Positions 46,498 to 60,013 of a stretch of 64,000 nucleotides of DNA are shown piece by piece. Within the stretch, counting starts at the first letter, position 1, and the number at the start of each line of letters is the position of its first letter. Origin of the DNA: Longimicrobium sp. (GTDB lineage: Bacteria > Gemmatimonadota > Gemmatimonadetes > Longimicrobiales > Longimicrobiaceae). The stretch is from assembly GCF_036399935.1 (NCBI RefSeq), contig NZ_DASWMD010000058.1:1-64000 (forward strand). Reading direction: 5' to 3'. The notes beneath the pieces were generated by a model. That model was given only the letters and a program-made list of their open reading frames with translations. It did not search any database and was not told the DNA's origin. Position numbers and translations under genes: made by a program.

Positions 46498-48534
46498 TCA
46501 CGGCACGCCAGCTGGCCGGAATGCCGGGAAGGTGCGGCCGATGTACGACGCCACTCCCGTCGTGCGTTCGGCCGCAGCATCCGCGCTCAGCGCAGCGGCG
46601 AGCGCGCGGCGCATCCCGGGCTCATCCCCTTCGCCTTGCGCGATGTGCGCAAGCCGCACGTACAGCCAGGGGAGCGAATCGTCGCTCCGCGTGGGACTTG
46701 CCAGCGCCTGCGCGAACTGCTGCCTCGCCGTGGCCGCGTCCTGACCGAAAAACGCGAGCGTGCCAAGCAGGTAATGCGCTCCGAAACGGGTGGCGTACAG
46801 GTCCGGCTCTGGAACGTCGTGGAGCATTCGCTCGAGTTCCGCCTTCGCGGATGCCACGTCCTGGCGGAACATCGCAAAAACGTAGGCCCGCATGCCGCCG
46901 GCATTCGCGCGTGCCTCGCCCAGCAGCGCCGGGTCCCAGCGCGGAACCAGGCTTTCGGGATCCAACTCCACGGACAGCACCGGCGCCGGCACCCTGATGC
47001 GGAAGGGCGTCGACTCTCCTCGAATGCGGATGTTTCGTGTGACCGCTCCACCCTCGAACGTCACCTGGACAGGAAGCTCCAGGTCGTACGCCGGGCCCTC
47101 CTGACGTATCGTGCCCTGCACCGACCGGCCCGCTCGCCTCCATTCCAGCGTCGGCTGCGGAAGCCCGGAGCGCTCGTACCACTGTGTCCAGAAGGTGCCC
47201 AGATCCCGTCCCGCGCCACGTTCCACCGCAGCCTTCCACTGCGGCCAGGTGACCTGCTCACCCGCGTGATCGCGGACGAACCGCTGGAGCACCGCGCGAA
47301 ACCTCTCCCGCCCGACCGCGCGCGCCAGCACCTCGTGGGCGAGAAAGCCCTTTCCATCGGCTATATCGTGCGAAACGTGGGCAAGGAACCCGGTGTCCGG
47401 CAACGCGTCGAGGGGAAAGTCGAACCCGGATTGGGCCAGGTAGGCGTAGCCGCGCAGCCCATGCGTGAACGACATCCCCGGGTAGCCCAGCCTCCGGAAC
47501 GACCGGGCGGCCGCGGGGCCCTCCATCACCTCCACGACGCGCAGAGCGCCGTACTGGGCCATGGCCTCGTCCAGAAGATAGCTGCCGCGCTCGCCGCGGT
47601 GCCGCACGGCAATCCCCCACCACTGGTGCCCCACTTCGTGCGCAAAGAAGCCCATGTTGAACGGCTCTTCCAGGTAGGTCTCGGTGGAGAGGATGAATCC
47701 GTCCAGGCTCGCGCCGTCGAATCCGGCGGCCCCCGCCTGTGCGGCCGGCGCCTCCGCGAGCGAAAACGCACCCCCCGGCAACGGGCCGAACTCCTCCACC
47801 AGCGCGTCGACCACCTCGCCCAGCCGCTGGGCGAGCGCGTTCACGTTGGTCCGCCGCTTCAGCGAGTATACCGTGATCGGCCGCGCACCGCCTGCGTGAT
47901 CGACGTAGTACCGCGCCGCCGCGAAGGCGAACTCGGCGGGGCGGTCCACCACGAACGAAAAGACCCCTGCTCGGCCCTCGTCCGCTCCGCCGGCCCTGCG
48001 GCCAGTGGACACGACCGTGACGCCCCCGGGCACCTGGAAGCGCAGGGTGCCGGTGCCGGTTCCATCACCCCACTTCGGATACCACGTGGCGCCGGCGAAC
48101 GAGCCCTCTTCACCCAGATACAGCAGGAACCCGGGCGTTTCGCCCCCCGCGTACGAAAACCGCAGCCGCACCGGCTCGTCGGGCGGAAACGGCGCCCGCG
48201 GCGCGACGATCCACGTCGGGGGCTTTCCATCGGCCACCCGGCGCGTCAGCGTGGCCGGGCCCGCGCTCCGGTCGGGGGAGAGCACCTCCACCTGCAGGCT
48301 GTCGAACTCCGCCCGCAGGCGAAGCTCGACGGTGTCGCGGGATGCCGCTGCCGCGGGGAGGCGAAGGATCCCCCGGGCCTGAAGCCGGTGCGCGGCCGGA
48401 TCCAGTGCCACCTCCAATTCGTAATGGGGAGACGCCGCCGGGGCGCCGGCCGCCTCCTGCGCATGGCCGCCACCCGCAAGAACCCCGGATAGCAGCGTGG
48501 CTGCGAGGTAGGCGGCTGGTCGCGGGTCGTACAT
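46498..48534 (-). CDS. M1-family zinc metallopeptidase (aminopeptidase N-like), secreted
   Basis: Signal peptide MYDPRPAAYLAATLLSGVLAGG. HEVGHQWWG zinc motif plus the downstream LLDEAMAQYG Glu. Helical/TPR-like C-terminus. Confidence 0.85.
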   Translation of the reverse strand: MYDPRPAAYLAATLLSGVLAGGGHAQEAAGAPAASPHYELEVALDPAAHRLQARGILRLPAAAASRDTVELRLRAEFDSLQVEVLSPDRSAGPATLTRRVADGKPPTWIVAPRAPFPPDEPVRLRFSYAGGETPGFLLYLGEEGSFAGATWYPKWGDGTGTGTLRFQVPGGVTVVSTGRRAGGADEGRAGVFSFVVDRPAEFAFAAARYYVDHAGGARPITVYSLKRRTNVNALAQRLGEVVDALVEEFGPLPGGAFSLAEAPAAQAGAAGFDGASLDGFILSTETYLEEPFNMGFFAHEVGHQWWGIAVRHRGERGSYLLDEAMAQYGALRVVEVMEGPAAARSFRRLGYPGMSFTHGLRGYAYLAQSGFDFPLDALPDTGFLAHVSHDIADGKGFLAHEVLARAVGRERFRAVLQRFVRDHAGEQVTWPQWKAAVERGAGRDLGTFWTQWYERSGLPQPTLEWRRAGRSVQGTIRQEGPAYDLELPVQVTFEGGAVTRNIRIRGESTPFRIRVPAPVLSVELDPESLVPRWDPALLGEARANAGGMRAYVFAMFRQDVASAKAELERMLHDVPEPDLYATRFGAHYLLGTLAFFGQDAATARQQFAQALASPTRSDDSLPWLYVRLAHIAQGEGDEPGMRRALAAALSADAAAERTTGVASYIGRTFPAFRPAGVP

Positions 48535-51202: not shown

Positions 51203-53100
51203 TGGCGGATCGGAACAGCGAAGAGGTCGGAAGCGCCGAGCGCAGCTTCCAATTCCCTCCAGACGAAATCGCTGCGGGTGGTGCCAACGTGGGAATCGCC
51301 ATTCTGGATCAGCCGGTTGCGCATGGCGCGGGGATACACCTGCCCCGAGCCGTGGATGAACCCGTCGCTGGGGATGCGGCCCGGCGCCGTGAACGCGTGC
51401 CACGTGGCGTCGGCGCCGTTCATCGCCAGAATCGCCGCGAGGGCGGGTACCAACTGCCATGGCCGGTACCAGAACTGCGCATAATGCCGGTGGCGATCGT
51501 ACGCCTCCTGGATCCGGCGCGCTACGGCCCGCTCGCCACACGACGATTCCGGTGGGCAGTCGCTTGGGGTCCAGAAGATCCGCCACGCGACCCAGCGCTT
51601 GGGCGTATGCGTCTGAATACCCACGCGCGTGAAGCTCTCGTTGAAGCCGTTCGTGCGATTGAGAAACGGGCTGTACGGCACGTCGTCCTCGTAGAACGGA
51701 TGCCACAAGAGCAGGTCGGGGACCATCCCGATGTTGAAAAGGGCAACTTCCAGCACCTGGACGTTGATGGCCACGATCGCACCCTGGTTGGGGCTGTCCA
51801 GCGTCACCACGCCCCGGACACTCCCCGGCCGGTTCACCTCCGCCCACTGGGCGAGCGAGCGCAAGACCAGACCGCCGTTGCTGTGCCCGATGAGGATCGT
51901 CTGATTGCCCGTGGTGGGCAGGTAGGGCAGGACTTCCTCCCGCTGCGACGGGATCGAAGGGCGCCAATTGATGCTAGGCCGAATGTGCGCGTTCGTCTGG
52001 AACCCGCAGCGGACCCACCCATCCATTCTCAACCACGCATCGCCACTACTCCGGATTCCGTGCTGAAAGAGCACGTTCACCCCGGAAGCCGCCGGCGGGC
52101 AGGGATCCGCGGGGGGCGCTGGCGGCGGCTCCTCCTCCGGCCCGCAGGGCGAGCCGTCATCCGGGCAGATTTCGAACGACAGCGGCGTAATGGTATTGCG
52201 CGCGGGCCGCGAGCCGCGCTTCTCCCGCCGTTCACGATCCTTTTGCGGGTTCTCGTGAAAGCGCAGCATGCGAAGCCGGTTCACCTGCCGCTGCCGCACC
52301 CGGCCGGCAGGCGAGTTGTGGCTGGTGGTGACCTCTACCTGCTCGAGGACGTACCTGGGCCCACGCCGGCGAAACGTGCGCACCACTTCCCCGTGCTGCT
52401 GCACCTGCTCGGCATTTTTGGCCGGGCGGCCCAGCCCGATCTCCTCTGGAGCAAGTCCGTTGGTGATCTGGATCTCGTCGGGCCGGGGCCGCTTGATCAC
52501 GGCTCGTGGGCCCGCCGCGGCGGCAAGCGGCTCCGCGGCCGGAGAGAGCGCGTCCAGCGTGTCGATGGCGGCCGCCTCCAGCACCAATCCGTCCGTGATC
52601 TGCTCGTGCGACGGGCCCGCGCCCACCGCCTGCATCGCCTGCAGTTCGTTCGACACCGGCTGGCGGTACGCGTCGTACCGCGTGAGGTAATCCCCTACGC
52701 TTCGCGTGCGTCGCGTCAGGTTCACCGGGGTGGTGAGCGGATCCTCCAGCGGATCCGTCTGGTCCAGCACCTGGATGATCCTTCCATAGGCGTCGTAGCC
52801 ACCCTCGATGCGCTGCGTTTCCGGGACGTGATACGCCACGAGCTGGTTGGATACCGCACCGGTGACCGGGTCGGTGATGGGCCGCTCCGAATCGATGGTG
52901 GTGCTGCCCTCCTGGTACAGTTCGGCCAGGTAGTACGTGTCGGCCTGGTCGATGTCGGGGTCGGGCTGAATCGTCGCCGATGGACGGGTGTTCTCCGGCC
53001 CGATCAGGGCACCATCGCCGGGGCCGTCGTTGCATGCGGCGGCGAGGATGCCTGCGAGCGCGAGCAGCCGGGCTGCGCGCCTCCGATGAAGACTTCGCAT
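51199..53100 (-). CDS. Lipoprotein with C-terminal alpha/beta-hydrolase (lipase/esterase-like) domain
   Basis: Lipobox LLALAGILAAAC. ILIGHSNGGLVLRSL (GHSxG nucleophile elbow). ATGA overlap with the downstream propeller gene. Confidence 0.7.
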   Translation of the reverse strand: MRSLHRRRAARLLALAGILAAACNDGPGDGALIGPENTRPSATIQPDPDIDQADTYYLAELYQEGSTTIDSERPITDPVTGAVSNQLVAYHVPETQRIEGGYDAYGRIIQVLDQTDPLEDPLTTPVNLTRRTRSVGDYLTRYDAYRQPVSNELQAMQAVGAGPSHEQITDGLVLEAAAIDTLDALSPAAEPLAAAAGPRAVIKRPRPDEIQITNGLAPEEIGLGRPAKNAEQVQQHGEVVRTFRRRGPRYVLEQVEVTTSHNSPAGRVRQRQVNRLRMLRFHENPQKDRERREKRGSRPARNTITPLSFEICPDDGSPCGPEEEPPPAPPADPCPPAASGVNVLFQHGIRSSGDAWLRMDGWVRCGFQTNAHIRPSINWRPSIPSQREEVLPYLPTTGNQTILIGHSNGGLVLRSLAQWAEVNRPGSVRGVVTLDSPNQGAIVAINVQVLEVALFNIGMVPDLLLWHPFYEDDVPYSPFLNRTNGFNESFTRVGIQTHTPKRWVAWRIFWTPSDCPPESSCGERAVARRIQEAYDRHRHYAQFWYRPWQLVPALAAILAMNGADATWHAFTAPGRIPSDGFIHGSGQVYPRAMRNRLIQNGDSHVGTTRSDFVWRELEAALGASDLFAVPIRQ

Positions 53101-53276
53101 TGTGGGGTGCTCCGGGCCAAAGCGAGGGAGAGATAAAAGCGGAAGGCGGGCGTATGTTTCGCGCCGGAAACAAGAGTAGCACCCTTTGCCCGGACCAACA
53201 AGAACTTCGAAGGACGCTCGGTACGGCGTTCCTCGTGGACCGTCTCAGCCCGGTATCCGTCGCACCTGTGCCTTAG

Positions 53277-53468
53277 CTACGTGCGCGAGCGTCGCGGGTG
53301 GGAGCCGGCGCAGGTGGCCGCGGCCCGCGCCCTGCTGTCCGACCTTCCCCGATCGAAGAAGACGCGGGCCTCGCCGTGCGGGCCGACTCGCTGGAATTTA
53401 TCTACCCCACTGCGCGCCAGCCCCCGCCCGGCCGGCTGGCGCTGGTCCCCAGGCACCCGTGGCAAGCC
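53277..53468 (+). pseudogene. Frameshifted 3' fragment of the small HTH-family gene (copy of 35923..36112)
   Basis: About 85% nucleotide identity to the 3' half of 35744..36112. The reading frame is broken after ...KTRA. There is no 5' half. Confidence 0.6.
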
Positions 53469-53594
53469 GGCCCAGGCCTGTAGCCTCGCCCCTTTTCACG
53501 AGAAGCTTGCAACACGATGGTAGCAGCTTTATCATGCGGATGCGGCACCCACAAACCGCCGCAAAATGTACACACTTCTACTGCGAGGTGAACA

Positions 53595-53765
53595 ATGGAG
53601 TGCCTGAACTTCCTGCAGGGGCCGCTGGCCAGCCAACACCTGGAAGGCACGCGCGGCGCCGTCGCCCACCTGGGGTTCGTGGCCCAGGCGATGGCCACGC
53701 AGTCCAAGTGCCCCAACTGCTGCGTCTCGAACTCGGGGGGATGCACCGCCCCGTGTGGCGAGTAG
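53595..53765 (+). CDS. Candidate lanthipeptide precursor (56 aa)
   Basis: GAGGTG Shine-Dalgarno 6 nt upstream of the ATG. Sequence MECLNFLQGPLASQHLEGTRGAVAHLGFVAQAMA-TQSKCPNCCVSNSGGCTAPCGE. The C-terminal 22 residues hold 5 Cys and 5 Ser/Thr. A modification kinase and a LanC-like gene follow directly. Confidence 0.6.
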   Translation: MECLNFLQGPLASQHLEGTRGAVAHLGFVAQAMATQSKCPNCCVSNSGGCTAPCGE

Positions 53766-53774
53766 CAGTCCCGG

Positions 53775-53804
53775 CGAGCGGCCCGGCATCCGCCGGGCCG
53801 CTCG
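53775..53804 (+). terminator. Perfect 13-bp-stem hairpin between precursor and kinase genes (attenuator candidate)
   Basis: CGAGCGGCCCGGC-atcc-GCCGGGCCGCTCG, 10 nt after the precursor stop. No U-tract follows. Confidence 0.5.
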
Positions 53805-53877
53805 TGATCCCATGCCCCCTCGGCGCCCCCCTGCCCAACGCCGTCTCAGGACGCGAAGTCCATACGAGGTCCCGCGC

Positions 53878-54969
53878 ATGCTGCTGTCCAGCTCGCAGGT
53901 GGTTACCTACCTCCTGGAACACCGCTTTCTTTCCCCCGCGCAGGTGGTGGAGGGCGGGGTGCTCGTGGAGGACGTCTCGCGCCGCAACCGCAACTTCCGC
54001 GTGGTACCCGCCGAAGGGACGGCCTTTCTCGTGAAGCAGGCGGCGTACGCCGAAACCGCGGGCTCGGTGGCGCGCGAGGCGCAGGTCTACCGCATGCTGG
54101 CCGGGCTTCCACGCGGCCGCACGCTGGGTCGCAGCCTTCCCCGCTGCTTCGGGTACGACGACGGCGCCGGAGTGCTGGTGCTGGAACTCCTTCCCGGAGT
54201 GCAGGACCTGCGGCAGTACCACGTGCTCCGCCGCCACTTCCCCGTACGCGTAGCGCGGGCCGTGGGAAAGGCCCTGGGAACCCTGCACCGCACCACCCGC
54301 GGGCTCGCCGGGCCGGCGGAGGACAGCCGCCCCGGCTGGGCGCTCTCGCTGCACCTTCCCGGTCCACGCTTCCTGCAGACCGCCAGCGCCGCCAACGCGC
54401 AGCTGGTGCGGATCATCCAGCAGTACGGCGAGTTCACCGCGCTCCTGGACGAGGCGCGCGCCGGGTGGCGGCCCGAGGCGCTGATCCACCACGACATCAA
54501 GTGGGACAACCTGCTGGTGCGTGCCCCGGGCGGCGGCGCGCTCAAGATGATCGACTGGGAGCTGGCCCGGTACGGAGACCCCTGCTGGGACGTGGGATCG
54601 GCGTTCAACGACTACCTGACGTTCTGGCTGCACTCGGTACCCATCACCGGCGAAATTCCGCCCGAGCGCTTTCTGGAGCTCACCTGGTGCCCGCTGGAGC
54701 GCATGCACCCCGCGTTGCGCGCCCTGTGGGATGCCTACCTGCGCGAGACCGGCGCCGACGCGGCACAGGCGGCCGAGTGGCTTCCGCGCGCGGTGCGCTA
54801 CACCGGGGTGCGCCTGGTGCAGACCGCCTACGAGCAGATGCAGTCGTCGCTGGCGCTCACCGGCAACGTGGTGTGCATGCTCCAGCTGGCATGGAACCTC
54901 CTCCGCCGCCCGGCCGAGGCGGCCGGGACCCTCCTGGGGCTGGGCCTCCGCGAAAGGCTGGCCGCATGA
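53878..54969 (+). CDS. Stand-alone APH/protein-kinase-fold kinase (lanthipeptide LanK-like)
   Basis: GAGG Shine-Dalgarno. Catalytic loop IHHDIKWDNLLV (HxDxxxxN). IDWELARYGDPCWDVGS (the APH-family DFG-equivalent). 363 aa. ATGA-coupled to the next gene. Confidence 0.75.
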   Translation: MLLSSSQVVTYLLEHRFLSPAQVVEGGVLVEDVSRRNRNFRVVPAEGTAFLVKQAAYAETAGSVAREAQVYRMLAGLPRGRTLGRSLPRCFGYDDGAGVLVLELLPGVQDLRQYHVLRRHFPVRVARAVGKALGTLHRTTRGLAGPAEDSRPGWALSLHLPGPRFLQTASAANAQLVRIIQQYGEFTALLDEARAGWRPEALIHHDIKWDNLLVRAPGGGALKMIDWELARYGDPCWDVGSAFNDYLTFWLHSVPITGEIPPERFLELTWCPLERMHPALRALWDAYLRETGADAAQAAEWLPRAVRYTGVRLVQTAYEQMQSSLALTGNVVCMLQLAWNLLRRPAEAAGTLLGLGLRERLAA

Positions 54970-57272
54970 CCCCCTACCTGCACCAGGTGGACGCCGCCGT
55001 GCGGCACGGGGCGATCCTTTCGCCCACCCGCTTCGCCTGGCTCGGCCGCCCCTCCCCGCCCCTTCCGCGCGCCACGCTGCGTGCCCTGACCCCCGCCACG
55101 GCGCGTGCGTACCTTCGCCACCGCATCCAGCAGGCGTTGTACACCGGCCTCTACACCCGCGGCGATGCCATGGCGCCTCCCTCGGAGCCCGGTCAGGCCG
55201 ACGTGGGCACCACCTCCTTCATCGCCGCGCTCTCGGCCGCCAACACGGGAAAGGGGGCGCTTCAGGACGGATGGGTGGTGGAGGCGGTGGATGGGAGCGC
55301 CGTGCAGGTGCGGCGGGGCGGCCTGGCGCTGCGGGTGCCGCGCCGGATGCTGCCCCGAGGCCGGACGCCCGCGCCCGGCACGACCGTGCGGATGCGGGGC
55401 GAACGGCAGCTGCTGAGCTACTCGCCAGGGTACTACGTGGCCATGGGCGACGTGGGATTGGGCGCCGCGGGCGAGCCCCTGGTGCGCGTCTACTGGCACC
55501 TGGAGCCGGCCGGTGCCGCGCCGGTGATGCATGCGCTCACGGGTGCGCTCAACCGCGCGCGGCTCCCCTTTCACTTCAAGGTCCTCAACGCGCCGGAGCG
55601 CTTCGACCGCTGCGACGCGGGGGTGCTCTACTTTCCGCAGGCGCGAGGGCGCGAGGTGCTGGCGCGGGTGGCGCGGGTCCATCCACGGGCGGCGGCGCAC
55701 CTGCGGCCCCGCGTGCCGGCGTTCACGCTGGAACTTGCGCCCGGGCTGGGGCTGGCGGAGGACCCCAGGGCGGGCGAGAGCTTTGGCCTGCACCGGTGCG
55801 GGCTCCTTGCCGACGCCCTCATCGAGGCGCACGAGGCGGGAGTCCGCGGGCAGGCGGAGCGGCGCGCGCGGTGCGTAGCGCACTTTCGCGCCCACGGAGT
55901 CGATCCCGATGCGCCGTACCTGAACCCCGGGAGCAGCAACGACTATCGGTTGCCGCCGCGCGCCGCGCGCCCGGCTGGCCGTCCAGTCCGCACGCCCGCC
56001 CCGGGCGTACCCGCGGAGGCGCAGTCCGCGGCGCCGCCGCGCGAGGTTTCGCTGCGGATCGCGACGGAGCTTGGGGCACGGCTGGCCGAGGCCGCGGTGT
56101 GGCACGGCGATCGGTGCAACTGGGTGGGCATGATCCCCGACGGGAGCAGCCGGTCGTACTCGTCGCTGGAGCCGGACGTGTACGCGGGGACGGCCGGGGT
56201 GGGCCTGTTCGCGGCGGAGCTGGCGCGGGCCACCGGCGACGGCGGGCTGCACCGGCTGGCGATCGGAGCGGTGCGCCAGTCGCTGCACCGGGTGGAGACG
56301 CACTTTCCCCCCTACCCGTGGGGCCTGTACGCCGGCGTGGCGGGCATCGCCTTCGCGGCGGCGCGCGTGGGCGTCCTGCTCGGCGAGGCAGAGCTGGCGG
56401 AGCGCGCGCGGGCCCTGGTGGACCGGGCGCGGGTGGAGAGCGATCCCGGCGAATTCGACCTGATGTTCGGCCTCGCGGGCGGCGTGCTCGCGCTGCTGGC
56501 GATGGAGCAGACGCTGGGCGACCCCTCGCTGCGGCCGCAAGCGGCGCGGCTGGGCGAGGAGCTCCTGGCGCTGGGCATGCCGATGCACGGGGGAACCGCG
56601 TGGCGCTCGATGCAGGCCACGGGCGAGCGGCCGCTCACCGGGCTTTCGCACGGCGCGGCGGGCGCGGGCCTCGCCTTTCTGGAACTGTTCCGTGCCACCG
56701 GCGACGCACGCTTCCGGGACGGGGCGGAGGGCGCGTTCGCCTTCGAACGACACTGGTTCGACGCCCGGCAGGGCAACTGGGCCGACCTGCGCAAGGAGCG
56801 GGCGCGCGGCCGGGGCCCGGTGCCGGTCGATACGCAGTGGTGCCACGGCTCGGCGGGGATCGCGCTCTCGCGGCTGCGCGCCTGCGAGCTGCTGAAGGAC
56901 GAGGTGTACCGCCGCGAGGCCCGGGCCGCCCTGGAAGCCACCCGCAGGGCCGCCGCCGATGAGCTGGCGGGCACCGGCAACTTCTCCTTTTGCCACGGGC
57001 TTGCGGGGGCGGCGGAAGTCATCCGCGAGGGTGTCGCCTGCTTTGGCGGGGACGTGGATCCCGAGGGAGTGGCGGCCCGCATCGCCGCGGAGGGGGCCGC
57101 CAGCCACGCCCGCGGCATCCCGTGGCGGTGCGGAGTTTCCAGCAGCGACTCGCCCTCGCTCCTGCTCGGCCTGGCGGGGATCGGGCGTTTCTACCTGCGG
57201 CTGTTCGATCCCTCGCTTCCCTCCCTCCTGCTGGTGACCCCCGGGGCGTTCGCCCCCTCGCCAGCCGCCTGA
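54966..57272 (+). CDS. Fusion protein: about 380-aa N-terminal domain of unknown type (putative phospho-Ser/Thr lyase, HopA1-like?) plus C-terminal LanC-like cyclase
   Basis: C-terminal half has LanC motifs GLSHGAAG (SHG), WCHGSAG (WCxG) and FCHGLAG (CHG), so the Zn ligands are intact. The N-terminal half has no motif I can assign. 768 aa. Confidence 0.75.
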   Translation: MTPYLHQVDAAVRHGAILSPTRFAWLGRPSPPLPRATLRALTPATARAYLRHRIQQALYTGLYTRGDAMAPPSEPGQADVGTTSFIAALSAANTGKGALQDGWVVEAVDGSAVQVRRGGLALRVPRRMLPRGRTPAPGTTVRMRGERQLLSYSPGYYVAMGDVGLGAAGEPLVRVYWHLEPAGAAPVMHALTGALNRARLPFHFKVLNAPERFDRCDAGVLYFPQARGREVLARVARVHPRAAAHLRPRVPAFTLELAPGLGLAEDPRAGESFGLHRCGLLADALIEAHEAGVRGQAERRARCVAHFRAHGVDPDAPYLNPGSSNDYRLPPRAARPAGRPVRTPAPGVPAEAQSAAPPREVSLRIATELGARLAEAAVWHGDRCNWVGMIPDGSSRSYSSLEPDVYAGTAGVGLFAAELARATGDGGLHRLAIGAVRQSLHRVETHFPPYPWGLYAGVAGIAFAAARVGVLLGEAELAERARALVDRARVESDPGEFDLMFGLAGGVLALLAMEQTLGDPSLRPQAARLGEELLALGMPMHGGTAWRSMQATGERPLTGLSHGAAGAGLAFLELFRATGDARFRDGAEGAFAFERHWFDARQGNWADLRKERARGRGPVPVDTQWCHGSAGIALSRLRACELLKDEVYRREARAALEATRRAAADELAGTGNFSFCHGLAGAAEVIREGVACFGGDVDPEGVAARIAAEGAASHARGIPWRCGVSSSDSPSLLLGLAGIGRFYLRLFDPSLPSLLLVTPGAFAPSPAA

Positions 57273-60013
57273 GGCACGCCTCCGGATCGGCGCGGGGGAC
57301 GTGGGTCGGCTGGTGCCGCCGAAAGCCGCGGCCCCGGCGAATCCCCATCGGCAGGCACATCCGGCTGGGCCGCCGCTCCCGGATCGGGGGTGACATCGAT
57401 GATCAACGTGTCGGCGCGGCCACCGAACGACGCGACGAGGGTGTGCCGCCCCGGCGATTCGAACGCAACGTGCCGCAGGGCGGACGCCGGCACGATGCGT
57501 ACGTACGGACCCCCGGTGATCTCTACGCGGATCGGCGCTCCGGCGATCACACGCCCGCGTGCATCGTACGCCTGTGCGCGGAGTTCCAGCGGCTGGCCCA
57601 CCTGCGCGCGGGCCGTGCGCGGCGAAAGGCGCACCCGCGCGACCGGCGCCGTCACCACGACCTGCACCTGGACCTCACGGGCAACCGGCTCCCCGCTGGG
57701 CAGGGTATCTCCCGAGCCGCTGAGCCCATGCACCCGCACCGTCGTCCGTCCGATGCGACGCGCAACGACCCAGACGGCGGGCTCCCCGCGGAGGTGGGGG
57801 CTCGGGCGCGCGAAGGGGCGCAGGCGTACGACGGAGCTGTCGCCCACCGCCCAGCCGGATGCGCTGAGCGTCGCGTACCCGCCGCTGCACACGTCGGAAT
57901 GGCAGCGCTGTTCCTCGACGGAGAACGGGACGGAGTCGCCGACCGCCATCCAGACCTCGTCGCCCGTGCTCCCGGGCGCACTGACGAACCTGCTGATCGA
58001 GTTGACGGAGGCCTCGTAGCGCCGGCGCGCCGCCGCGGCTTCCAGGCGCAGGGCGGAATCGGGCTCGGGCACCTGCGGATCTACGTACTCGATCCGCACA
58101 CTGTCGCGCCGGTAGACCACGGGAACCTCCGGCCGCATCTGCCAGACCGAGGCCCACGCCGGCCGCAGCCCCACCAGCCTCGCGATCGTTGCGCTGTCGC
58201 GCAGCGTCAGCACCACGGCCCCGTTCTCCACGAGAGCCCCGGCATCGGCGGGGGGGCAGCTCGCGATCATCCCGGGCAGGCAGTACCGCGCATCCGCGGC
58301 GGCAACCAGCTCGGAGAGCGTGGCGAAGCGGCGGGCGCCCTCCCCGTGTCCGCGGCTGATCGAAAGTGAAAGCGAGCGCGGGCCATCGATGCCGTCGATG
58401 CCGATGCTCCATTGGTACGCCGGCTGGTATTGCGGGTCCTGGAGTTCCGACCAGCCCCAGCCGGCCGCCGTGTCTCGCGGAAAGATCACCCGTATCTCGC
58501 GCCGGCTCGCCAGCACCCGCGTGGTCCGGGTGCCAAGCGAGTCCTGGCCAGGATCCTGGGCCGGCCGCGCGTAAGGAGGTGCGGGCAGTGCGAAACGGGG
58601 GAGCCCCGCAACGGGGATGGGGGCGGGCTGGCATGGCTCGTCCTTCCACTGGGCGCTGCGGTTCTCGCAGGGTACGACCTTCGGATTGCGGCCCAGCGCA
58701 GGGCCTGCCTTCCCCCAGCAATGAACCCTGCCGTAGTCTGCCAGCGCACAGGCGTGCTCCGTGCCGACGGCCAGCGCGTACCACCTGCGCCCGGGAGCGA
58801 CCTCCACCGCGGCGGGCGAGCACCGGCCGCCGAGAAAGCAGAGGTCATCGTAGGCGGCTCCCGCGTCGGCGGCGCCTCGGTAATCCGGCGGGCCGCCGTC
58901 CGGTCCCGCGTTGGCGGTGGTGAGCGACCCCAGCTGGCCGTTCCTGTTTTCTCCCCAGCAGAAGACCCTCGCGTCCGCCGTCCGCGCGCACGCGAACTGG
59001 GAGCCCGCATGCACCTCGACCGCACGGCCCGGGAGCGGAACGTACTGCGCGCGGGGGGAGTTGGGCATGCGGCACCTCCCCAGCACGCACCGGTAGTTGT
59101 CACCCCAGCAGAACACCCGGCCGTCGGCGGCGACGGCGCAGGCCAGCACGTCGCCCGCGCCGACCTGGAGGAATTCTACACGGGAGGGATCGTCGTGGGA
59201 GCCGGGAACGCTGTCCGGCAGGATTCGCCGCGGGGTGGCGGTGCTGCACGGCCGGCTGGAGTACGGGAGCGGCTCGCTCGCGCAGCGGATCGCGGCGGAG
59301 TCGCCGGTCTGGCCACTCTGCCCGTACCCCCAGCAGTACACGCCGCGGTTGTGGGATGCCACGCCGCAGGTGAGCCGCCCCCGTGCGCTCAACTGGGAGA
59401 ACCGCAGGCCGCCCGTAACGGCGCCAGGCGCCCGGCTGAACGGCCCGCCGTCGCCCACCGAGTCGGGCGCCCAGGTGCCGTTGCCGAGCTCGCCCATCTC
59501 GTTCTTGCCCCAGCAGAAGGCCGCGCCATCGTGCGCCAGCGCACATGCGTGGGACCAGCCTGCCGCCACCGCTCGCACGTACCGCGGCGGCAGCTCCCCC
59601 TCCAACGGCAGCGGAAACACGCACGCCCCGTATCCGCACTCCCCGGGGACCGCCATCCTGGTTCCCGCCGAGTCGGTCCACCCGCCCGTCGCGCGAGGAT
59701 TGCACCACGCCTCCCAGGCGATCGTCACTGCGCAGACACCCGACTGCGACGGCGCGATGGATCGTACCCGCGCAGCCTGCCCATCCGCCGAGAGGACGCG
59801 GACAGGCGCCCCCTCTCGCTCGCCGATCCCACCCCAGCAGTACGCCGCCGCCGAAGTCGTCGTGATGCAGGTGACATCATCCGCGGCTGTCAGCGCGGCG
59901 AGCGTGTCGACGCCCACTGCCTGGACCCTGTCCGGCGACGGCGCGGGCCGGGGTGCGGCGCATCCGGCCAACGACACCGCGGCAAGAAGGAGTACGTTGG
60001 CGGTCCGGGGCAT
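57191..60013 (-). CDS. RCC1-repeat lipoprotein with C-terminal Big_2 (bacterial Ig-like) domain
   Basis: Lipobox LLLAAVSLAGC. Repeated CWGxNxxGQLG motifs. C-terminal Ig-like module. The 3' end overlaps the LanC-like gene convergently by about 80 bp. Confidence 0.7.
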   Translation of the reverse strand: MPRTANVLLLAAVSLAGCAAPRPAPSPDRVQAVGVDTLAALTAADDVTCITTTSAAAYCWGGIGEREGAPVRVLSADGQAARVRSIAPSQSGVCAVTIAWEAWCNPRATGGWTDSAGTRMAVPGECGYGACVFPLPLEGELPPRYVRAVAAGWSHACALAHDGAAFCWGKNEMGELGNGTWAPDSVGDGGPFSRAPGAVTGGLRFSQLSARGRLTCGVASHNRGVYCWGYGQSGQTGDSAAIRCASEPLPYSSRPCSTATPRRILPDSVPGSHDDPSRVEFLQVGAGDVLACAVAADGRVFCWGDNYRCVLGRCRMPNSPRAQYVPLPGRAVEVHAGSQFACARTADARVFCWGENRNGQLGSLTTANAGPDGGPPDYRGAADAGAAYDDLCFLGGRCSPAAVEVAPGRRWYALAVGTEHACALADYGRVHCWGKAGPALGRNPKVVPCENRSAQWKDEPCQPAPIPVAGLPRFALPAPPYARPAQDPGQDSLGTRTTRVLASRREIRVIFPRDTAAGWGWSELQDPQYQPAYQWSIGIDGIDGPRSLSLSISRGHGEGARRFATLSELVAAADARYCLPGMIASCPPADAGALVENGAVVLTLRDSATIARLVGLRPAWASVWQMRPEVPVVYRRDSVRIEYVDPQVPEPDSALRLEAAAARRRYEASVNSISRFVSAPGSTGDEVWMAVGDSVPFSVEEQRCHSDVCSGGYATLSASGWAVGDSSVVRLRPFARPSPHLRGEPAVWVVARRIGRTTVRVHGLSGSGDTLPSGEPVAREVQVQVVVTAPVARVRLSPRTARAQVGQPLELRAQAYDARGRVIAGAPIRVEITGGPYVRIVPASALRHVAFESPGRHTLVASFGGRADTLIIDVTPDPGAAAQPDVPADGDSPGPRLSAAPADPRPPRRSGGVPQAAGEGANAPGVTSRREGSEGSNSRR

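Follow-up and report, generated by a model that had tools for sequence, protein, structure and literature searches.

A probable minimal lanthipeptide operon in Longimicrobium, with a short-leader precursor beside a kinase and a fused lyase-cyclase

Does the small open reading frame (ORF) directly 5' of a kinase gene and a cyclase gene in a Longimicrobium sp. metagenome-assembled genome (MAG; Gemmatimonadota) encode the peptide on which the two enzymes act? We asked this of the first 64,000 nucleotides of contig NZ_DASWMD010000058.1, the whole stretch being called the window here, in which a first-pass annotation made from the sequence alone had taken the frame at 53595-53765 for a lanthipeptide precursor. 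Our analysis supports this interpretation as essentially right. We hold it probable that the frame encodes a genuine substrate of the adjacent enzymes, here called LanK and LanYC, and we are equally confident that lanA, lanK and lanYC together make up a minimal three-gene lanthipeptide operon. The peptide is very probably the precursor of a class V, LanC-dependent ('Vb'-like) lanthipeptide made with a fused lyase-cyclase. The features that carry the argument are as follows.

53595-53765, forward strand: lanA-type precursor gene, 56 amino acids plus stop (translation; GC content at third codon positions, GC3, of 0.93; three assemblies; top leave-one-out motif match).
53610-53648, forward strand: leader motif F6-G18, FLQGPLASQHLEG, a putative enzyme-recognition element (family consensus and leave-one-out profile).
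53697-53762, forward strand: Cys/Ser/Thr-rich segment T35-E56, TQSKCPNCCVSNSGGCTAPCGE, the minimal core (5 Cys, 5 Ser/Thr, two Sx4C units).
53878-54969, forward strand: lanK, an APH-family Ser/Thr kinase of 363 amino acids (Pfam PF01636, 6e-21; LxmK as best model and PDB match).
54966-57272, forward strand: lanYC, a HopA1 lyase-LanC cyclase fusion of 768 amino acids (PF17914, 5.6e-38; PF05147, 2.2e-48).

The frame runs for 56 codons from an ATG to a TAG, and its re-translation, MECLNFLQGPLASQHLEGTRGAVAHLGFVAQAMATQSKCPNCCVSNSGGCTAPCGE, matches the peptide given in the first-pass annotation exactly, as do the counts of 5 Cys and 5 Ser/Thr in the final 22 residues. GC content is 0.63/0.55/0.93 at codon positions 1/2/3, the profile that coding sequence shows in this 69% GC genome, which puts a measured value on the third-position bias reported earlier. 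The same protein is called by gene callers in three independent assemblies, and an identical one is on record as a 'hypothetical protein' from a Longimicrobium sp. MAG. Pfam and NCBIfam scans assigned no family to the peptide, nor to four long precursors from related loci. A homology search with the whole peptide against 5.8 billion proteins, at E up to 10, recovered the identical sequence alone; its kinship with other precursors came to light separately, through a shared leader motif.

For the comparison, a genome scan with one genome per species gave 446 tblastn-confirmed LanYC relatives, a figure that sets a ceiling for the fusion, one of the search patterns lying within the LanC domain, and the best 80 of these were taken as comparative loci. 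They come from Chloroflexota, Acidobacteriota, Actinomycetota, Pseudomonadota, Bacteroidota, Planctomycetota, Verrucomicrobiota, Gemmatimonadota, Cyanobacteria and Myxococcota, together with one MAG labelled Nitrososphaeraceae. In 72 of the 80 loci a LanK homologue ends just 5' of the HopA1-LanC gene, and the lyase-cyclase fusion is the rule among the retrieved relatives. The protein database likewise holds about 40 full-length LanYC relatives of 36-47% identity, all of them two-domain proteins, the closest synthetase in the databases being that of locus L084 (47% identity). Three candidates tried as orthologous loci (P0003, P0004 and P0012) were rejected, their synthetases being only 45-47% identical to LanYC, with long-leader precursors in L084 and L085.

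A weak tblastn signal from the window peptide led to small ORFs directly 5' of the kinase in several of these loci, and a pattern search of those ORFs revealed a common motif. Aligned on it, 48 precursors give the consensus QEVQA-S-FLQGPIASQYLAG; within the 13 positions of FLQGPIASQYLAG the window motif FLQGPLASQHLEG is identical at 10. The same-genus locus L072 reads DFFTGPVMQQHLGAARG where the window reads NFLQGPLASQHLEGTRG. As a guard against circularity, a leave-one-out profile was built from 42 motifs with the window left out. Of the 1104 open segments that the six frames of the 64 kb contain, the window ORF ranked first (15.7 bits, E = 6e-4), and the next-best segment reached only E = 1.3. 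Applied to the comparative loci, the motif profile picked out 15 ORFs from 21,010 open segments, and all 15 lie beside synthetase genes on the synthetase strand. A profile of the whole leader detected 47 same-strand ORFs in 43 of the 80 loci (E from 1e-11 to 1e-36), each with a leader of about 100 amino acids that ends in the motif. The window peptide carries the family form [FY][FL]xGx[ILV]xxxx[L] before its core, and has what the other precursors have: a small ORF by the synthetase, a family-conserved leader and a C-terminal core of Cys and Ser/Thr. At the level of sequence comparison we regard this leader motif, which recurs beside homologous kinase and HopA1-LanC genes in many phyla, as the decisive evidence for a precursor.

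The adjacent enzymes point the same way, since both keep their catalytic residues. The best NCBIfam model for LanK is LxmK (NF038156, 104.6 bits, 5e-30), and its sole sequence match in the PDB is again LxmK of the lexapeptide dehydratase (9dk1_A, 1.3e-9); its HHDIKWDN catalytic loop is intact, as is an IDWE motif. The ATG of lanYC overlaps the lanK stop codon (ATGA), so that the two genes are adjacent and translationally coupled. They had been described as a kinase/cyclase pair, which is right for the APH kinase and the LanC domain but incomplete, as HopA1 and LanC domains share one ORF and the pair is in fact a kinase plus a lyase-cyclase fusion. LanYC comprises a HopA1-type phospho-Ser/Thr lyase (residues ~1-330), a disordered linker (333-353) and a LanC cyclase (~355-768), and an AlphaFold2 model (predicted local distance difference test, pLDDT, 87) returns the same two domains and disordered linker. 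The top Foldseek match of the N-terminal domain is LxmY (9dk3_B; E = 1e-14, TM 0.74), and the fold of the C-terminal half matches LicM2, LanCL1, NisC and MadC; phmmer adds LxmY (2.6e-17) and LicM2 (8e-14). In the lyase, R174/K205/R215/Y222 align with the R/K/R/Y set of LxmY, and their spacing equals that of R187/K219/R229/Y236 in CaoY, where mutation of R187 almost abolishes phosphate elimination and R229Q makes dehydration inefficient (PMC9486802). In the cyclase, the zinc ligands C626/C676/H677 and the catalytic H562 vary hardly or not at all across 35 homologues. The best NCBIfam model for the cyclase domain is the LanM C-terminal domain (226 bits), followed by LanL; all three NCBIfam scores (LxmK, LanM and LanL) lie under their family cut-offs.

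What product might such a system make? The window core has two Sx4C units, S37 to C42 (53703-53720) and S45 to C50 (53727-53744), as well as two further Ser/Thr-Cys spacings, T35 to C39 and T51 to C54. Past the motif, the family cores vary in sequence and are rich in Cys and Ser/Thr; several are made of repeats such as GSLGRAC, GSWARDC and SLFxxC. Across 43 cores with 711 Cys, Ser/Thr occupies the position five residues before a Cys 339 times, against 110 in shuffles. The excess above expectation is present in 36 of the 43 loci and this offset is the top one in 18, the overall z-score of about 25 being inflated by repeats in the cores. The enrichment suggests a preferred Sx4C ring size. Lesser Ser/Thr excesses occur around Cys in the family cores at -3, -4, +2 and +3. 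In a Gemmatimonadaceae locus (L070) the core ends in CKVSNGCPR, which resembles CCVSNSGGC of the window.

Two points find no support in this comparison. Equal numbers of Cys and Ser/Thr had been taken as what a polycyclic peptide needs, but they do not simply translate into five rings: three Cys (C39, C42 and C43) are preceded by just two Ser/Thr (T35 and S37); C43 is left without an upstream partner, so that a fifth ring would need the reverse direction (to S47), or this Cys would stay free. A cleavage site had also been suggested after AQAMA, before the Thr that follows. No site is conserved at that position in the family, L008 having a loosely similar LMAQSIGC and most relatives none, and the boundary between leader and core would therefore fall somewhere between residues 19 and 34, which is as closely as it can be placed. 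An 'extra' Cys noted at leader position 3 is indeed there, but is not conserved in the family. For the minimal core T35-E56 the predicted monoisotopic mass is 2144.81 Da, or 2054.75 Da with five dehydrations.

On these grounds we propose the following route. The N-terminal amphipathic motif FLQGPLASQHLEG would dock the peptide on the kinase/lyase complex, and LanK would use ATP to phosphorylate Ser/Thr residues of the C-terminal segment. The HopA1-type domain of LanYC would then remove the phosphate to leave dehydroalanine or dehydrobutyrine, and the zinc-dependent LanC domain of the same protein would steer the addition of Cys to form (methyl)lanthionine rings. The likely rings are S37-C42 and S45-C50, both of the Sx4C type, plus T35-C39 and T51-C54. 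Leader removal and export would be left to genes outside the operon.

Several observations weigh against the frame being a substrate processed in this way. The demonstrable homology of the peptide is limited to about 14 residues, its leave-one-out score is modest, and the whole-peptide search returned nothing beyond the peptide itself. LanK scores far under the LxmK equivalog cut-off of 315. Most family members have an N-terminal leader domain, the profile of which finds no match in the 64-kb window, and recognition might be impaired where that domain is absent. The operon holds no protease, transporter or immunity gene, the neighbouring genes are not conserved in the family, and a five-ring product would require one ring closed in the reverse direction.

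How far do these points favour other explanations? High-GC genomes hold many spurious ORFs, and a mechanical search finds 406 of 30-150 amino acids in the window, five of them with at least five Cys in the final 22 residues. The frame could on that account have arisen by chance in high-GC intergenic sequence and be biologically meaningless. We consider this extremely improbable, as only three of the 406 have even the relaxed motif [FY][FL]xGx[LIVMF], the frame at 53595-53765 is the sole one to combine it with a Cys-rich tail, and it has coding GC3, lies in the right place on the right strand, and matches the leave-one-out profile significantly with no close runner-up. The claim that it is the only small ORF 5' of the enzyme pair fails literally, because mechanical ORFs exist at 53281-53523 and 53298-53483, but these have no coding GC3, motif or Cys-rich tail; no other mechanical ORF in the interval from the divergent upstream gene to the kinase has the coding GC3 signature. 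Less far-fetched, if still rather unlikely, is a genuine, modified precursor whose product is not a five-ring lanthipeptide: dehydration could be partial, some Cys could be free, in disulfides or metal-bound, and the mature peptide may begin much earlier, for example at T19 right after the motif. Both the surplus of Cys over preceding Ser/Thr at C39/C42/C43 and the absence of a conserved site to fix the leader/core boundary speak for such a product, and where class V peptides have no cyclase, other ring patterns can form spontaneously (PMC11186320, PMC12328550). Set against this, the LanC domain retains all its zinc and acid-base residues, and the spacing favoured by the family occurs twice in the core.

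The length of the leader raises a further doubt. In 43 of the 80 loci, among them that of the closest synthetase relative (L084) and the full-length Longimicrobium loci L032 and L072, the leader of about 100 amino acids includes an N-terminal beta-barrel domain of ~85 residues (...LVPDP...G[FY]xG...RLYL...ILH...W[VI]...). In the AlphaFold2 model of one long-leader precursor taken from the protein database (P0052) a small beta-barrel spans residues ~30-100 (pLDDT 86-97), followed by the motif as a helix-prone segment and by a disordered core. In the window peptide just four residues precede the motif, and the frame is closed by a stop codon two codons 5' of the ATG. The ORF could be a decayed remnant of a long-leader gene, its N-terminal domain deleted and its product incompetent, with the enzymes idle or using a substrate elsewhere in the genome. 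This seems to us improbable. The frame has a ribosome-binding site, ATG and promoter-like site of its own besides its coding GC3; no trace of the beta-barrel domain lies upstream in any frame, the 64-kb window has no second ORF with the motif or the leader, and neither enzyme gene is disrupted or has lost its catalytic residues. Moreover, short-leader precursors occur in five further loci (L002, L009, L041, L048 and L070) from different phyla, with synthetases no nearer to that of the window than those of other loci. From these comparisons we take the window gene for a natural variant with a minimal leader rather than a wreck, decay keeping a small probability.

Two precursor genes of the comparative set deserve mention here. 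That of L002 (4698-4868; MNGLKSSVENPSAFLKGEIVSRYLPG...STGACPTVWC) is a short-leader precursor 3' of the fusion gene, on a contig labelled as a Nitrososphaeraceae archaeon MAG; the kinase and HopA1-LanC pair there either is truly archaeal or reflects an error in binning. In L085 (1638-3800), the locus of the second-closest synthetase relative, a called protein of 720 amino acids has a ~570-residue N-terminal part with an HExxH motif (SHEVGHAIWD), then the leader domain, a motif of the FLAG type and a short core rich in Cys; it may represent a fusion of metalloprotease and precursor, or else two genes run together.

Where does the window system stand among known lanthipeptide pathways? In class V, the precursor is dehydrated by a heterodimer of an APH-type LanK and a HopA1-type LanY, which phosphorylates Ser/Thr and then eliminates the phosphate, and the lexapeptide and cacaoidin leaders are predicted to bind LanK via hydrophobic contacts (PMC9486802, PMC12141560). 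The window shares with class V a stand-alone APH kinase related to LxmK/CaoK and a HopA1 lyase with the Arg/Lys/Arg/Tyr set. Among solved structures, the class Va enzymes LxmK/LxmY (PDB 9DK1-3) come closest to the two window enzymes in sequence and fold; LxmY is 27% identical to the window lyase over the columns aligned by Foldseek. In LxmK/LxmY and CaoK/CaoY, as in the window, the lyase R/K/R/Y residues are conserved and the kinase and lyase genes are adjacent. Class Va clusters, however, have no LanC and use LanD/LanX for aminovinyl-methylcysteine (AviMeCys), whereas the window has a LanC domain and neither LanD nor LanX; a search of the called genes within 10 kb on either side matched no flavoprotein (LanD) and no second APH (LanX). 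The leaders differ as well, those of class Va type A having a conserved Tyr-17 and Ala-Pro at -3/-2 (PMC9486802) in place of the FLxGxI motif.

Class Vb is closer in its logic. In the accounts given by citing papers (PMC11186320, PMC12291118, PMC12328550), the SmoA system of Pei et al. 2022, the single characterised member, has a dedicated LanC that directs overlapping rings. On those accounts SmoK/SmoY/SmoC and the window enzymes both dehydrate with an APH-type kinase and a HopA1-type lyase and form rings with a LanC-type cyclase, both do without LanD/LanX and hence without aminovinylcysteine (AviCys), and both act on a precursor with a Cys/Ser/Thr-rich C-terminus. SmoC is, as reported there, a separate cyclase that can be omitted in co-expression, whereas lyase and cyclase of the window are one polypeptide; and the class Vb host is Streptomyces rather than a member of Gemmatimonadota. 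The window cyclase has its zinc ligands and LanD/LanX are absent, as in class Vb, but the cyclase does not stand alone, so the window system would work like class Vb without being a plain member of it.

The fused architecture has been seen before in genome mining. Eyles et al. 2021 proposed HopA1-LanC fusions as a new, uncharacterised synthetase (PMC8153245), and their clusters (Families 11/20/22) resemble the window in having the fused enzyme with a partner phosphotransferase. The Family 11 peptides of their supplementary table carry GF[LI]KG[DE][IL], a motif of the FLxGxI type, and Cys/Ser/Thr-rich C-termini; those families are actinobacterial, of about 100 amino acids and known from genome mining only, whereas the peptide of the window is far shorter, with a core unrelated in sequence (PMC8153245). 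Our literature search found no experimental study of a HopA1-LanC fusion, its coverage being incomplete and the result an absence of evidence only. Class IV (LanL) and class II (LanM) enzymes share the kinase/lyase/zinc-LanC logic, LicM2 being the best solved relative of the cyclase, but the window lyase is of the HopA1 rather than the OspF type, and its kinase is a separate APH-type protein rather than a central Ser/Thr-kinase domain.

Around the precursor gene, three elements may bear on its expression.

53507-53535, forward strand: sigma-70-like promoter candidate, TTGCAA-17 nt-TATCAT (consensus match only).
53585-53590, forward strand: ribosome-binding site GAGGTG, 4 nt 5' of the ATG (read from the sequence).
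53774-53805, forward strand: perfect 14-bp G+C-rich stem-loop without a U-tract, 9 nt past the stop codon (folding against shuffles).

The ribosome-binding site is present as first described. The promoter candidate is the sole sigma-70-like site in 53100-54000, where shuffles average 0.0 sites, and sits in a locally AT-richer stretch 5' of the ORF (GC 0.48-0.54). The hairpin has a minimum free energy of -39.8 kcal/mol (z = -4.6), and none of 200 shuffles folds as well. A gap of 25-400 nt separates precursor and kinase in 26 related loci, of which 14, including L072, have a strong hairpin there (z below -2 against mononucleotide shuffles). An Rfam scan of 52900-54100 at E up to 1 gave no family, and a scan for intrinsic terminators found none because the hairpin has no U-tract. 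Lanthipeptide operons commonly have a stem-loop between lanA and the genes for modification, and the one seen here probably raises the ratio of precursor to enzyme transcript, by partial termination or by stabilising the 3' end.

The flanking genes lie on the other strand. Those considered as possible cluster members, namely genes for an M1-like peptidase, an AraC regulator, a PQQ propeller, an alpha/beta hydrolase, an RCC1 protein and a DUF6265 protein, were rejected, as none is conserved beside the synthetase in the 80 loci, the exception being two weak AraC-type matches (L026 and L005). The M1-like gene (46498-48534, reverse strand) lies 5 kb upstream and encodes a secreted-looking protein of 678 amino acids with HEVGHQWWG and a weak Peptidase_M1 match; M1-type peptidases cut leaders off class III lanthipeptides, and this gene has no conserved place beside the synthetase in the 80 loci. 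At its 3' end, lanYC shares ~80 bases (57191-57272) with the 3' end of a convergent RCC1-repeat gene (57191-59917 or longer, reverse strand), an overlap that is unusual for convergent genes. In the two closest metagenomic relatives, L085 (7511-10248) and the P0012 contig, a HisKA_3 histidine kinase and a GerE-type response regulator lie directly 3' of HopA1-LanC, a pair that hints at production under regulation or self-sensing; in the window, lanYC is not directly followed by such a pair.

A different kind of precursor-like gene turned up in the relatives. Giant ORFs 5' of the kinase and HopA1-LanC genes (L031:1852-4656, L042:2092-4485, L040:1657-3921, L032:2159-4480 and L072:3107-4771, and others in L061, L027, L049, L052, L062, L074, L034, L038, L050 and L060) consist of the leader domain and FLxGxI motif, then 190-774 residues of repetitive Cys/Thr/Pro-rich sequence. 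The L031 tail has 82 Cys in 774 amino acids, and L032 is built of units such as STAATxCTQIGC and GCPSTSTCPP. The five giant ORFs that were measured (L032, L034, L038, L050 and L072) have a GC3 of 0.85-0.93 and so look truly coding. If such ORFs are substrates, the products would be proteins with tens of thioether rings.

Taking these lines together, we tentatively offer a wider reading that is possible as a whole. LanK and the fused LanY-LanC may form a distinct, widespread and experimentally untouched synthetase type, its substrates all addressed via the one short, helix-prone FLxGxIxxxxL motif, with the 56-amino-acid peptide as a natural minimal substrate for which the beta-barrel leader domain would be dispensable, and with relatives, other Longimicrobium included, putting tens of thioether rings into giant Cys/Thr/Pro-rich 'lanthiproteins' of 350-930 amino acids.

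A precursor beside such a cluster will be no surprise to a specialist. The fused form, flagged by genome mining in 2021, is found here in at least ten phyla, and to our knowledge hardly any natural products of Gemmatimonadota have been characterised. Should the peptide be processed in the proposed way, the locus would offer a compact system, three genes in ~3.7 kb, for characterising class V synthesis by a fused lyase-cyclase. Its very short leader narrows the putative recognition element to ~13 residues, which would be useful both for mechanism and for engineering leader-tagged substrates. The system also ties to the unexplained giant Cys-rich precursors of related loci, which are worth a separate study.

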